A stretch of 64,000 nt of DNA from Eledone cirrhosa (GCA_964016885.1 OZ024740.1:211544001-211608000), one strand, 5' to 3'. Positions 25,946 through 64,000 are shown, counted from the stretch's first letter. The notes: a model not told the origin generated them from the sequence alone. Translations and numbers: made by a program.

Positions 25946-26300
25946 ATATATATATATATATATATATATATATATATATATATATATATATATATATATA
26001 TATATATATATATATATATATGTATATATATATATATATATATATATATATGTATATATATATATATATATATGTATATATATATATATATATATATATA
26101 TATATATATGTATATATATATATATATATGTATATATATATATATATATATATATATATATATATATATATATATATATATATATATATATGTATATGTA
26201 TATATATATATATATATATATATATATATATATATATATATATATATATATATATATATATATATATATATATGTATATGTATATATATATATATATATA
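25946..26300. repeat. (TA)n microsatellite (one of many; others at e.g. 26697-27097, 17520-17617, 58343-58420, 63347-63660)
   Basis: Direct inspection. Confidence 0.97.
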
Positions 26301-26487
26301 AATTAATACAATAACAGAGATAGTTTAAAGCTAATCTCTGACTGGTAACCATCTCACTCAACAAACATTAGGTTATATTTTAATATAAACCCAATTTAAG
26401 TGTTTGGGGTGCTAACAATATGTATTATGTGGAAAAGCCAGTTGTATTATTTTATGAGATATAATTAAAGTTAAAATATATCTCTCT

Positions 26488-26612
26488 TTCCAAACAATTG
26501 TTTCATTATAAGTTTTCTACAAATTCGGAGAATATTTCCAGTTTATGTAGAAGCCTAATATACATTCATGTAAGAATATATTTAGGTGGGCGCTTATAAA
26601 TCATCAGTGGAA
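26488..26612 (-). ncRNA. Type I hammerhead ribozyme with large branched stem II
   Basis: UUCCA-CUGAUGA-U-UUAUAAG-[two hairpins]-CUUAUAA-U-GAAAC-AAUU-GUU-UGGAA. Confidence 0.82.
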
Positions 26613-27095
26613 GCCCAATAAACTTTGATATAAGAAAAACATTTCTTACCACAGTTAAAAATCGTGTCCGTTAAATTGCTCCTTCCCGCATCGATGTGTA
26701 TATATATATGTGTATATATATATATATATATATGTATATATATATATGTATATATATATATATGTATATATATATGTATATATATATATATATATATATA
26801 TATATATATATATATATATGTATATATATATATATATATATATATATATATATATATATATATATATATATATATATATATATATGTATATATATATATA
26901 TATATATATATATATATATATATATATATATATATATATATATATATATATATAAATGAAAGGTATAGGTATATATATATATATATATATATATATATAT
27001 ATATATATATATATATATATATATATATATATATATATATATATATATGTATATATATATATATGTATATATATATATATATATATACATATATA

Positions 27096-27530
27096 TAGTG
27101 AAAGAGTGAAGAATAACATGGTCAACAGTACAAAAAGGGTTTTATTTACAGTATTAACAATTGTTTCATTGATTAGGATGTCTAAAGGTTCCTAATCACT
27201 TGAAGTTGTGTCACTCAACCTTCAATACAGTGTATGCCTAATCAAATCATCGGAATAGTTATTCCGATCATTTGATTAGGCATACACTGATTTGATTAGA
27301 CATCCTAATCAATGAAACAATTGTTAATACTGAAACCAAAACCCTTTTTGTACTGTTGACCATGTTATTCTTCACTCTTTCACTACTATTACTCCAAGAT
27401 TAACCTACATAGGAATTCCCGTGAACTTGCCACCTAACTAAGGAAACCTCTTGTTGAGTCAAACAATGCCGTACATTAAAACTATTCATAATACAGAGTT
27501 CTCACAACCTCTAACTGGATTACATATAAT
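27096..27530. mobile_element. Fold-back non-autonomous PLE-like element (inverted repeat 27096-27385) between (TA)n tracts
   Basis: Arms are reverse complements with apex at ~27258; each arm carries a hammerhead motif pointing outward. Confidence 0.8.
27152..27257 (-). ncRNA. Type I hammerhead-like motif with large stem II (mutated sister copy at 27260-27329, plus)
   Basis: UAUU-CCGAUGA-U-UUGAUUAGG-[insert]-CCUAAUCAA-U-GAAAC-AAUU-GUU-AAUA. Confidence 0.72.
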
Positions 27531-27564
27531 GATAATTTGTTATCCAATATATATATATATATTT

Positions 27565-28090
27565 ATAAATTAATAAAAACAATGAATAAAAACAAAGAAA
27601 CAGTTCCTTATATTAAAAAATTCATCATTTTACGATCGTTTCTAGGATATATATGTGTGTGTTGGTATGTATATCATATAGATCTATGTAAAAATTTTAC
27701 AAACTATCAGAGGAAATATACATACCTACACATATATATGCTGTCTTCAGTAATTATTTCTGTAATTATTTCAGTAATTATTTCTGAAGACAGCATGTAT
27801 ATGTGTAGGTATGTATATTTCCTCTGATAGTTTGTAAAATTTTTACATAGATCTATATGATATACATACCAACACACACATATATATCCTAGAAACGATC
27901 GTAAAATGATGAATTTTTTAATATAAGGAACTGTTTCTTTGTTTTTATTCATTGTTTTTATTAATTTATCTTGACTCTGTTTTCCTGTGATTTTCATTGA
28001 AATATGTTTTGAATATATCTTCTCTTTTCATGATATTTGGATTACATTGAGTTCTTCATACGGATTGGACACTACCGTATATTTATCTAC
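27565..28090. mobile_element. Fold-back element (inverted repeat 27565-27969) between (TA)n tracts
   Basis: ~185-bp arms; apex made of 12-bp C(A/T)GTAATTATTT repeats. Confidence 0.82.
27780..27907 (+). ncRNA. Type I hammerhead ribozyme with ~100-nt stem II domain (mirror copy 27627-27754, minus)
   Basis: AUUU-CUGAAGA-[long imperfect helix incl. GGUAUGUAUA/UAUACAUACC]-GAAAC-GAUC-GUA-AAAU. Confidence 0.72.
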
Positions 28091-28100
28091 ATATATATAT

Positions 28101-60943: not shown

Positions 60944-61242
60944 CAGTGTACCCCTGGCATTCGCGGAATTTTCCTCAGAACCTAATAATTGTTCGCGAAA
61001 ACCACCGCATATTCGCGATTTTTAAAAATGGCTTTTATATATATATTTTTAATGTTAAATTATTAATAACAATATACCGTATTTGCCGGTCTATTAGACA
61101 CCCCTTCGCATAAGACGCTCCCTCTATTTTATTATATTTTGGAGTTTATAGGCATTTTTATGGACCACGTCCATATTCGCGGTTTTTCACTCTTTGCGGG
61201 TGCTCTAGGAACGTAACCCTTGCAAACACCGGGGGACAACTG
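60944..61242. mobile_element. Degenerate MITE, Tigger/pogo-like
   Basis: CAGT..CCCC.GG terminus at left and CCGGGGGACAACTG|TA at right; imperfect TIRs. Confidence 0.5.
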
Positions 61243-61619
61243 TATATATTGGACAGATTTCAAGATAAGAATTTTATTTTAAAAGGCTTTTATTATAAGA
61301 TGTGTTGACAATAATTTTCAACTGTCAACATACAGATTGCATTGGCGGCTGCGATGGCGGCGGCGGTTGTAGCGATGGCAGTAGCGGTGGCGGTGGTGGC
61401 AACAACAGCGTAGGCAGTAAATACCAGCAGCATAAGCAACAACATCAGCAAAAGATGTATAATAGATGTAGGTAGCATGAGCGAAGAAAATATCAATAGT
61501 TATGGTGGCAACAGCGACTACAGTGACTACATCAGCAGTGATTAACGTTAGAAGAGCAACAAAGGCAGCCTTAATGACGATGATGGTTTGGTTCATTGAA
61601 TATATTGCTGTTAAATAGC

Positions 61620-62170
61620 AGAGGCAGATAGGAGAGAGATACGAGAGAGAGATATACGAGAGATATATGAGGGAGATAGGAGAGAGATACGAGAGAGAGA
61701 TATACGAGAGATATATGAGGGAGATAGGAGAGAGAGATATAAGAGAGATATGAGACAGATATGAGAGATATAAGAGAGATATGTGAGAGATATAAGAGAG
61801 AGATACGAGAGATATGGGAGATACGAGAGAGAGATAGGAGAGAGATATGAGCGAGATACGAGAGAGATATGAGCGAGATACGAGGGAGATATGAGCGAGA
61901 TATGAGCGAGATACGAGAGAGATATGAAAGAGATACGAAGGAGATATGAGCGAGATACGAGAGTGATATGAGCGAGATACGAGGGAGATACGAGTGAGAT
62001 ATGAGCGAGATACGAGGGAGATATGAGCGAGATACGAGAGAGATATGAAAGAGATACGAGGGAGATATGAGCGAGATATAAGAGAGATATGAGAGAGATA
62101 TAAGAGAGATATGAGACAGATAAAAAGAGATACGAGAGAGATATGACAGAGATATGAGAGAGATATGAGG
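61620..62170. repeat. GAGATA(C/T)GA-based purine-rich simple repeat
   Basis: Direct inspection; explains the Ser/Leu/Ile/Tyr ORFs. Confidence 0.92.
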
Positions 62171-62534
62171 TAACATTGAAAGAATTGAATGAAAACAATT
62201 GAAACCCAACACAGATGTGTAAATCTAATTCTGTGACAGTTAATATAGACATGTAGTGAAGAGAATATTGTGTTCTAGAGACAATTTATATATATGTTTG
62301 TGTGTGTGTATATATATAAGTATGTGTGTGTATATATATATATATATATGTGTATATATATAAGTATGTGTATATATATATATGTATATGTATATGTATA
62401 TATGTGTGTGTATATATATATATATATATATATGTATATGTATATAATGTATATAATGTATATATATATATAATGTATATATATATATATATATAATATA
62501 TAAGATCAAAAGATGGTTAAAAGAATTCCATGTA

Positions 62535-62601
62535 TTTTATTATGCGCATTTCAAAAACAAATATCATCATGCAATAACATTTGCGTTTTTGTCAGATAAA
62601 A
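62535..62601 (-). ncRNA. Type I hammerhead-like motif (G8A) within inverted-repeat element 62499-62767
   Basis: UUUUAU-CUGACAA-AAA-C-GCAAAUGUUAUU-GCAU-GAUGAUAUUUGU-UUUU-GAAAU-GCGC-AUA-AUAAAA. Confidence 0.72.
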
Positions 62602-62906
62602 TAGGGAGACATGATATGAAGGTTAAAACACACTATTGAATAGTGCAGTTTTAAATCAACATATATATTGATTGCCTGATATATATGTTATTGCATGATG
62701 ATATTTGTTTTTGAAATGCGCATAATAAAATACATGGAACTCTTTTAACCATCTTTCGATCTTATATATTATTTATACTCCAGTCCTACAAACTGTAGAG
62801 TGCTACTTATCCGATATCTGCATTGCTTTATTGTACTACAATAAAACTCACCTCCTACATTATATATATATATATATATATATATATATATATATATATA
62901 TATATA

Positions 62907-63349
62907 TGCAAAGTTTTATTTAAATTGTTGGGTTACAACGAGTAAATATTTATAACTGATATAAAAGCACTCAACAAGTATTTGGAGTATATTTACGATA
63001 TTAAATAAATGGAAACTATATTTATAAAACCATATTTATTTCATTATATATATTTCAGGGATATCATATTAAAAATATGGTATGCCTTCATCAGACAAAA
63101 TACAATATAAACAGTCTTATAAATAGATAGATTTGACATACCTTACAACTTCAACTTCCATTTAAAAATCAACTTTTTAAATGGAAGTTGAAGTTGTAAG
63201 GTATGTCAAATCTATCTATTTATAAGACTGTTTATATTGTATTTTGTCTGATGAAGGCATACCATATTTTTAATATGATATCCCTGAAATATATATAATG
63301 AAATAAATATGGTTTTATAAATATAGTTTCCATTTATTTAATATCGTAT
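62907..63349. mobile_element. Fold-back element, family of 58421/58878 (plus hammerhead 63243-63299)
   Basis: Palindrome ~62995-63348, apex ATTTAAAAATCAACTTTTTAAAT. Confidence 0.8.
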
Positions 63350-64000
63350 ATATATATATATATATAATGTATATATATATATATATATATATATATATAT
63401 ATATATATATATATATATATATATATATATATATATATATATATATATATATGTATGTATATATATATATATATATGTATATATATATATATATGTATAT
63501 ATATATATATGTATATATATATATATATGTATATATATATATATGTATATATATATATGTATGTATATATATATATGTATGTATATATATATGTATGTAT
63601 ATATATATGTATATATATATATGTGTGTGTATGTATGTATATATGTAATTATACATATACGTATATATATATATATGTATACATGAATGTATGTATAGTA
63701 TATTTGCCAATATACCGTATGTTTAATTAAAAACATTATATATGTGTGTATCTATGTTTGTATATATATATATATATATATATATATATATATATATATA
63801 TATATATATATATATATATATATATATGTATATATGTCTGTCTGTATATATATATATACATAATATATATATATATATATATATATATATATATATATAT
63901 ATATATATATATATATAGTATTAAGGGTACTATTTATGGTTATGTATGCAATAAAACCTTTGATGGTAATATATTATATATACACAAACCCTAAATAGTG

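Follow-up and report, generated by a model that had tools for sequence, protein, structure and literature searches.

Palindromic TA-tract islands of Eledone cirrhosa as candidate ends of Penelope-like elements and tandem hammerhead retrozymes

Introduction

Penelope-like elements (PLEs) of the Hydra clade, which carry a C-terminal endonuclease (EN), mostly insert into (TA)n microsatellites, and the inverted 5' copies, tails and TA targets of PLEs are published (Craig et al. 2021, PMC8557442). Metazoan PLE hammerheads have been described as type I folds with a palindromic helix III and a high diversity of families, and motif pairs lying 100-700 bp apart on opposite strands have been ascribed to what are probably truncated PLEs (Cervera & de la Pena 2014, PMC4209133). 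PLEs have also been proposed to mobilise animal retrozymes that lack long terminal repeats (non-LTR retrozymes), which are non-coding tandem units with a type I hammerhead, low GC and PLE co-occurrence; there is little evidence on their life cycle, and the case, in the portions consulted, has been argued only from that co-occurrence and from similarity to the PLE pseudo-LTR (pLTR) (Cervera & de la Pena 2020, PMC7229834; Li, Clavereau & Pollet 2026, 10.64898/2026.07.22.740005). The mechanism of head-to-head PLE insertion is stated to be unresolved (PMC8557442, PMC3846280). In vitro, the green anole element Poseidon has both target strands cleaved and extended, starts reverse transcription at two internal sites that bound the tail, and uses a mainly uncleaved RNA template (Frangieh et al. 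2024, PMC11167929). A repeat annotation of Octopus vulgaris lists 31 recently active Penelope-like families, and the word "ribozyme" is absent from its main text.

Here we describe a stretch of 64,000 nucleotides (nt) from Eledone cirrhosa (G000:C1:211544001-211608000 within a 3.0-Gb assembly, called the window below), in which palindromic, ribozyme-bearing islands between (TA)n tracts had been predicted to form a diverse population of PLE-mobilised mini-retroelements whose complementary DNA (cDNA) stalls and folds back at the hammerhead. Judged from sequence, most of these islands are instead short ends of full-length PLEs, and four further units would be retrozymes. This identity is much firmer than the mechanism that we propose for it, namely two-ended target priming on a sense, uncleaved RNA with run-off at its capped start, by an enzyme that the retrozymes share, to which we assign a probability of roughly 0.7. 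The architecture of the islands is already published, and what they add is evidence, drawn from junctions, on a mechanism that is still open: with thousands of young copies per family, the junctions predict precisely which nucleotides begin the transcript, a G derived from the cap, and a pair of priming sites. The literature, searched without supplements and most subscription papers, yielded no report of a cap G at PLE junctions or of PLE-type ends on retrozymes.

Results and Discussion

Self-BLAST and a repeat finder place inverted arms at or beside the islands of the original prediction, with TA tracts adjoining, and so confirm the palindromic islands between TA tracts. All-against-all BLAST sorts the twelve island coordinates into nine families (one with three members, one with two, and seven singletons), in keeping with the predicted figure of about nine unrelated ones, and all six self-complementary stem III palindromes that had been quoted are present behind GAAA. 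The claim that every island shares one arm plan and a type I hammerhead survives only in part. Arm asymmetry is found, and a canonical CUGANGA core lies on at least one arm of 9 of the 12 islands, but island 62499 has a core mutated to CUGACAA, that of island 27096 reads CCGAUGA, and island 56281 shows no hammerhead core. Island 28101 has no ribozyme of its own and forms a single element with 28473-28903; island 29060 reaches back to about 28969.

We scanned for hammerheads with a type I descriptor that tolerates a mismatch at the base of stem II as well as a long stem II, and that rewards a palindromic stem III. The window holds 11 such motifs as compared with none in each of 10 shuffles, and a genome sample of 60 evenly spaced 10-kb stretches (600 kb) holds 35 as compared with none in each of 5 shuffles, the null being a lenient one in that doublet shuffles destroy inverted repeats too. 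Tracts of (TA)5 or longer lie within 350 nt downstream of 29 of the 35 sampled hammerheads (background, 1091 of 4560 positions), which bears out the predicted enrichment at TA; an inverted partner is present for 16 of the 35. Extrapolated roughly, the sample would correspond to more than 100,000 hammerheads genome-wide. A strict descriptor returned only 5-6 motifs because it demands pairing at the base of stem II. No hammerhead is found among the Rfam matches listed (150 of 188), nor in five loci at gathering score, and the microRNA matches in Rfam score below gathering and derive from hairpins. The monomer folds better than shuffles in only 3 of 9 motifs (z below -2.7).

The predicted link to Penelope-like elements is supported by the co-mapping of arms with open reading frames (ORFs). 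Five of the nine families, those of islands 58421/58878/62907 (family A), 27096 (B), 27565 (C), 36676/55880 (H) and 62499 (M), flank Hydra-type PLE ORFs elsewhere in the genome, and the arms of island 56281 (I) flank a Neptune-type ORF. Six of the nine are thus ends of protein-coding PLEs rather than non-autonomous elements, and the islands do not make up a single class of mini-element. In family A, 30 genomic copies have common outer ends and different centres; their 5' continuation leads into a common 3' untranslated region (UTR) and from there into an ORF with reverse transcriptase (RT) and GIY-YIG domains. All 91 RT-bearing copies scored are family-like at 89% identity or above, and the tail-less end has 2188 exact matches. 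We had also considered family A as a 290-nt element resembling a short interspersed element (SINE) with a fixed 5' end, a candidate rejected because most of the 30 pattern loci continue upstream into the common 3' UTR.

The family-A partner has a single ORF of 708-816 amino acids (aa) from stop to stop, in which RT and C-terminal GIY-YIG motifs were read by eye; Pfam gave no match for the ORF of L128. RWR and DKT occur in the ORFs of L125, L128, L149 and L151, and the protein has a CxCX5C linker, no CCHH in the EN, and CxxC and CxH near its C-terminus, while the element has both a hammerhead in its pLTR and insertion into (TA)n. By these motifs the partner would be a Hydra-clade PLE, given that the clade of C-terminal EN+ elements is likewise characterised by RW(R), DKT, a CxCX5C linker, the lack of an internal CCHH, CxxC plus CxH, a pLTR hammerhead, (TA)n insertion, an inverted 5' copy and an optional tail (PMC8557442). 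It differs from the published members in its body (~3.6 kb, as compared with "generally <3 kb") and in its tails (~70-160 nt, as compared with 30-40), and whereas few Hydra-clade families are described outside Cnidaria in that source, Hydra-type ORF matches at ~28-80% identity occur in about 17 of the 60 sampled stretches. Relatives of the family-A protein that bear names come from corals and octopus, and none of them is labelled as a PLE. Octopus entries named "GATA zinc finger domain-containing protein 14-like" (P0032, P0033) are 44-47% identical to the Hydra-type RT and are probably mislabelled PLE ORFs. In practical terms, related ORFs carry "GATA zinc finger" labels in octopus annotations, and the islands themselves resemble miniature inverted-repeat transposable elements (MITEs) or microRNA hairpins.

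Three family-A copies lie in the window (features are unstranded unless a sign is given). A diverged copy with Hydra-type pLTR ends occupies 58421..58828, with cores at 58492 (-) and 58645 (+); the second, 58881..59279, joins a tail-less inverted arm to a tailed one (cores 58977 (-) and 59092 (+), tail ~59189-59279); and the third occupies 62908..63346 (cores 63094 (-) and 63248 (+)).

By tblastn and blastn, the arms of B, C, M and of a further family, P, co-map around other Hydra-type ORFs, while the ORF between family-G arms is Neptune-type. In all of these families and in H, the order is tail-arm, ORF, tail-less arm, or part of it; for B, C, H, M and P the links come from one to three loci each. 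In the window, head-to-head pLTR ends of Hydra-type PLEs are seen in family B (27097..27546, CCGAUGA core 27253 (-), tail ~27385-27546; partner loci L212/L213 and L217) and family C (27565..28090, CUGAAGA core 27784 (+) with a stem II of ~100 nt, tail ~27970-28090; L189). Family H has head-to-head pLTR ends at 36674..36879, with a core at 36735 (-), a mutated opposite arm and an apex at the putative capped start; it flanks a Hydra-type endonuclease ORF in L389, and a relative lies at 55879..56076 (core 56007 (-)). Family M, also with Hydra-type pLTR ends, occupies 62496..62860, where the CUGACAA at 62595 (-) is canonical in other copies (L188, L166).

Family P, at 56077..56225 (+), is a separate PLE end adjoining the 55880 island; it has ~26,000 pattern matches and flanks a Hydra-type ORF in L161. 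Its window copy shows a G+C-rich hairpin and no hammerhead core, and another RNA motif may be located at this place.

Family I occupies 56287..56716 as head-to-head ends of a Neptune-type PLE (L383-L386). It flanks a 777-aa ORF in L386 with Pfam matches to RVT_1 and GIY-YIG, whose DKG, CX4CxxC linker and C-terminal GIY-YIG with CCHH are, like its microsatellite targets, shared with Neptune-type PLEs; canonical PLEs are said to carry a hammerhead (PMC8557442), whereas the family-I pLTR has no core in the window copy, and none was seen by eye upstream in longer copies. We therefore keep the partner at "Neptune-type" and do not file it as a member of the clade. Family G, at 29930..30393, forms palindromic ends of a GIY-YIG-encoding (Neptune-type) PLE (L153, L176, L185, L190), with a hammerhead that is degenerate in the window copy. 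A 5'-truncated family-G PLE at 31881..32920 (-) retains the end of the GIY-YIG ORF (32185-32823) and an inverted pLTR arm (core 32730 (+)), and a second truncated one lies at 36933..37856 (core 37166 (-)). Around the family-G palindrome, an outer pair of inverted arms (29544-29710 and 30487-30653) marks nested insertions in one TA tract. Family J, at 59366..59762, has head-to-head ends that turn downstream of the family hammerhead and a 3' end similar to that of family G.

One could still envision the islands as independent non-autonomous mini-elements, or as MITE-like DNA elements moving as a short palindrome, since each family has many short copies with two arms (1100-3400 candidates at first look) and the outer ends are constant. 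Such elements would not have a different centre in every copy, arm lengths that vary continuously from 29 to ~3600 nt into the ORF, or asymmetric ends with a tail on one side; this reading is already largely refuted, and we regard it as very improbable. Even less probable, in our view, is that assembly of long reads created the palindromes as fold-back artefacts. The window end does have a near-identical inverted copy ~57 kb downstream, one sampled locus (L166:51-5407) is a 5.4-kb palindrome, and when contigs and reads were placed on 27097-28085 no contig spanned a whole island; but in hundreds of loci the two ends coincide with sites specific to the family, the arms differ by substitutions and fillers, and contigs of other public runs show family-C fold-back joints at other positions. 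The inverted copy (G000:C1:211662305-211665700, L001) repeats window ~57400-60800 at 97.8% over 2.8 kb with TA tracts of different length, and could stem from segmental duplication in inverted orientation or from a haplotype artefact. The L166 palindrome contains several nested families in its arms; it could be either one long insertion with two arms or a fold-back made during assembly.

The four remaining units appear to be non-LTR retrozymes by the genomic definition, that is, non-coding tandem hammerhead units: 28101+28473 (family D/E), 29060 (F), 60488 (K) and 26301. Coding capacity was examined for D/E only, whose longest frame is 52 aa without a PLE protein match. The 558-nt D/E retrozyme is represented at 28106..28903 (+) by a short inverted arm and ~1.1 units (core 28757 (+)); elsewhere it forms arrays of 11 or more units in tandem at ~99% identity. 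Family F, with a unit of 424 nt, occupies 28969..29422 (-) as about one minus-strand unit and a short inverted arm (CUGACGA core 29209 (-)), and three tandem units have been seen. The ~525-nt tandem unit of family K, of retrozyme type, lies at 60489..60896 (+), with a core at 60706 (+) and a short inverted arm at 60489-60556. The partial ~990-nt unit at 26301..26698 (-), with a type I core at 26607 and a stem II of 96 nt, has TA on both sides and no inverted arm. For these last two, tandem spacing comes from same-strand matches (K also from L073; the ~990-nt unit has 1812 pattern matches, with same-strand pairs ~990 nt apart).

PLE-type ends were mapped on two of the four retrozymes. Those of D/E lie at unit positions ~1 and ~120, and those of F at 218-222 nt (18 of 40) and 277 nt (15 of 40) after the cleavage site. 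In L395, a head-to-head D/E array of ~5 + 6.6 units (11 units) sits between two TA tracts and ends exactly at both fixed sites. Non-LTR retrozymes elsewhere are alike in unit structure, but head-to-head arrays with two fixed end sites in TA tracts, which is the integration pattern of PLEs, set the present ones apart from those described (PMC7229834; 10.64898/2026.07.22.740005). The 5' ends of F are scattered over the whole unit (43 ends), as would be expected of a circular or tandem template. At G000:C4:291979000-292007999 (L396, L397), ~35 units of the 558-nt retrozyme lie in two 10-kb stretches, head to head at one end and with TA at the other. Separately, an H-related hammerhead recurs at a spacing of 221 nt at G000:C1:67880846-67881323, and its pattern count is skewed between strands (4355 as compared with 1600), which points to another retrozyme that forms a large array at some other place.

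Each mapped family has two fixed sense 3' end-points, one for the tail-less and one for the tailed arm; after most of them, the element continues with TATA-like letters. At the other end the arms vary. Among 70 position-ordered family-A loci, tail-less arms range from 29 to ~3600 nt and reach the ORF. Of 96 family-A arms, 83 end upstream of the cleavage site; 4 end no more than 8 nt from that site and 4 no more than 10 nt from the core, and 10 ends fall in a 16-nt zone ~89 nt upstream of the core. Because the great majority of arms run past the cleavage site, the template appears to have been uncleaved and the ribozyme is not the general stop. In 27 clean two-armed copies, counted by hand (the other 43 of the 70 loci have no clean second arm or are cut by the locus edge), the tail-less arm extends more than 15 nt further 5' in 16, the two arms are equal within 10 nt in 7, and the tailed arm is longer in 4. 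The 16 unequal pairs cannot be obtained from one cDNA folding back on itself.

These counts bear directly on the predicted stalling of cDNA at the hammerhead, whether at its structure or at a cleaved end, followed by fold-back. The apices of four window islands do lie near the CUGANGA core, as had been noticed, at 4-17 nt; 47 of 57 family-H arm ends fall in two 10-nt bins around the core, and of 12 bystander ends 8 are no more than 10 nt away from it; the D/E arms stop just downstream of the cleavage site in 13 of 22 cases; and family A has its 7 pairs of equal arms. Stalling is nevertheless hard to reconcile with the family-A ends, with family I, which is coreless and has the same architecture, with the F ends, of which only 5 of 43 lie within 20 nt after the cleavage site, and with the unequal arm pairs, and it does not predict an untemplated G. 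We consider the stall an unlikely general explanation. The apices near the core would fit better with a putative transcription start at the 5' edge of helix I.

Family H points to such a start. Its arm ends pile up at a single A that precedes the core by six nt. Long copies have a template C before this A (5955 matches), whereas among 1513 matches with another letter the first 100 show G in 82, and the sequence upstream of the extra G is heterogeneous. This is as expected from run-off over an RNA cap. Signals elsewhere are moderate or weaker: G in 7 of 16 non-C cases of family C (by eye), whose peak A precedes the core by 7 nt, and 37 G, 41 T and 22 A among 100 listed at the family-A peak. Pooled over families, ends at peaks have G in 20 of 32 cases and ends elsewhere in 27 of 126. 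The peak contexts (CCAGA, TCACT, CATT, TCAGT and TTAGT) are initiator-like. It is thus likely, on these grounds, that the turn-around point marks a putative RNA start and not a ribozyme stall. In the pLTR of a rotifer element, TCACT has been termed Inr (initiator)-like (PMC3846280), an internal promoter is described for Penelope (PMC2377424), and untemplated 5' G residues in L1 and SVA insertions have been ascribed to copying of the cap (PMC3287187).

For rotifer PLEs, head-to-head joints have been hypothesised to arise by self-priming on an antisense template (PMC3846280). That published model would explain intron retention too, and many junctions here are near-perfect palindromes; but it is on the sense strand that arms stop sharply at an initiator-like A and carry an additional G, and the 3' sites of the two arms are fixed, differ from each other and are both joined to TA. 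We think that antisense self-priming is improbable for these families.

Our preferred reading, two-ended target priming, holds that the PLE enzyme primes reverse transcription on both cut target strands and that the two cDNAs meet head to head. Given the family identities, the two fixed 3' end-points per family, the TA flanks and the variable arm lengths, the steps would be as follows. The GIY-YIG nuclease would cleave both strands of (TA)n, and each 3' end would prime at either of two internal RNA sites, where the usual TATA-like letters could pair with the target. The RNA template would be uncleaved, because the arms run through the hammerhead. The transcript would start inside the pLTR, and many cDNAs would run off at its capped 5' end, leaving an untemplated G and short palindromes. 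Tandem retrozyme RNAs, probably circular or multimeric, would borrow the same enzyme, giving head-to-head arrays with scattered 5' ends. Poseidon offers a close parallel: the two fixed 3' ends match its two internal RT starts, and the cutting and extension of both strands and the uncleaved template agree. It differs in showing no homology between start site and target, whereas TATA-like letters follow most start sites here, and that report, as far as it was consulted, treats neither the junction between head-to-head arms nor a G from the cap (PMC11167929). A more specific version, which we offer only tentatively, is that the junctions record a PLE cycle in which two capped, uncleaved sense RNAs are copied from both ends of one (TA)n cut with run-off at the cap, that the stem III palindrome serves mainly to pair two RNAs per particle, and that retrozyme circles enter the same machine; if true, this would amount to direct genomic evidence for mobilisation of retrozymes by PLEs through rolling reverse transcription.

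Several observations weigh against two-ended priming in this form. The ORF links of C, M and H come from one or two loci each, and no autonomous partner was found for family J or for any of the retrozymes. Arms could also come to look unequal if, once inserted, palindromes suffered asymmetric deletion at their centres. In family H, ~30 of the 100 G cases are ambiguous by eye, in that the G could have been supplied by the opposite arm or by flanking GA repeats, and the peak coincides with a pyrimidine-tract/CAG site, which makes splicing a possible confounder. T is commoner than G at the family-A peak, the start-site peak itself is modest (10 of 96 ends) and the G excess moderate, while in family P G accounts for 11 of 100 listed and the excess is weak. 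The D/E ends, which cluster at 10-47 nt downstream of the predicted cleavage site in an A/T tract where alignment is imprecise, are one result that fits a ribozyme-made end. On the possible presence of TA tracts before insertion, 7 rows searched for nested insertions include one clear case (L053, within an existing tract), a number too small to build on.

The hammerhead fold itself was examined in 15 copies of family E, chosen by a pattern that fixes the core and stem III. In these, 93% of helix cells are paired, as compared with 37-48% in slid controls, and 35 double-sided changes occur as compared with 11.8 in shuffles; the number of pairs with double changes (8) is not above shuffles (73 of 500). 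The helices thus appear to covary around a conserved type I core, and we regard the element as a predicted ribozyme. Most families lack G10.1-C11.1 at the base of helix II and have U.U, C.A or A-U in the first position, and stem II reaches 50-115 nt; in both respects, and in one CCGAUGA family, they differ from the PLE hammerheads described in metazoans (PMC4209133), which they resemble in type I fold, palindromic helix III and family diversity. D/E has an invariant G-C right after its C.A mismatch. A U.U or C.A mismatch at the first position of stem II recurs in the otherwise unrelated families B, C, H, K and F and in 26301, and a basal U.U is known in an axolotl retrozyme (PMC7229834). PLE hammerheads are often weak in vitro (PMC4209133), and one of nine retrozymes tested for cleavage was active (10.64898/2026.07.22.740005).

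Additional Features of the Window

Minimal hammerheads with a short stem II occur at 14428 (+), 35848 (+) and 55772 (-), the first of them after a PLE RT/EN fragment (13551-14457). A 58-bp direct repeat (36026-36083 and 36597-36654) bounds a 630-bp stretch between TA tracts; each copy contains CUGAUGA, and a complete fold was not found. A 190-bp repeat (4586-4781 and further copies) has 77 sites in the 600 kb sampled. Several RT copies resembling those of long interspersed elements (LINEs) lie at 2141-3914, 4782-7708, 46444-48976, 52206-55160 and 21783-24992; for these and the 190-bp repeat, SINE, Tx1 and RTE are provisional labels.

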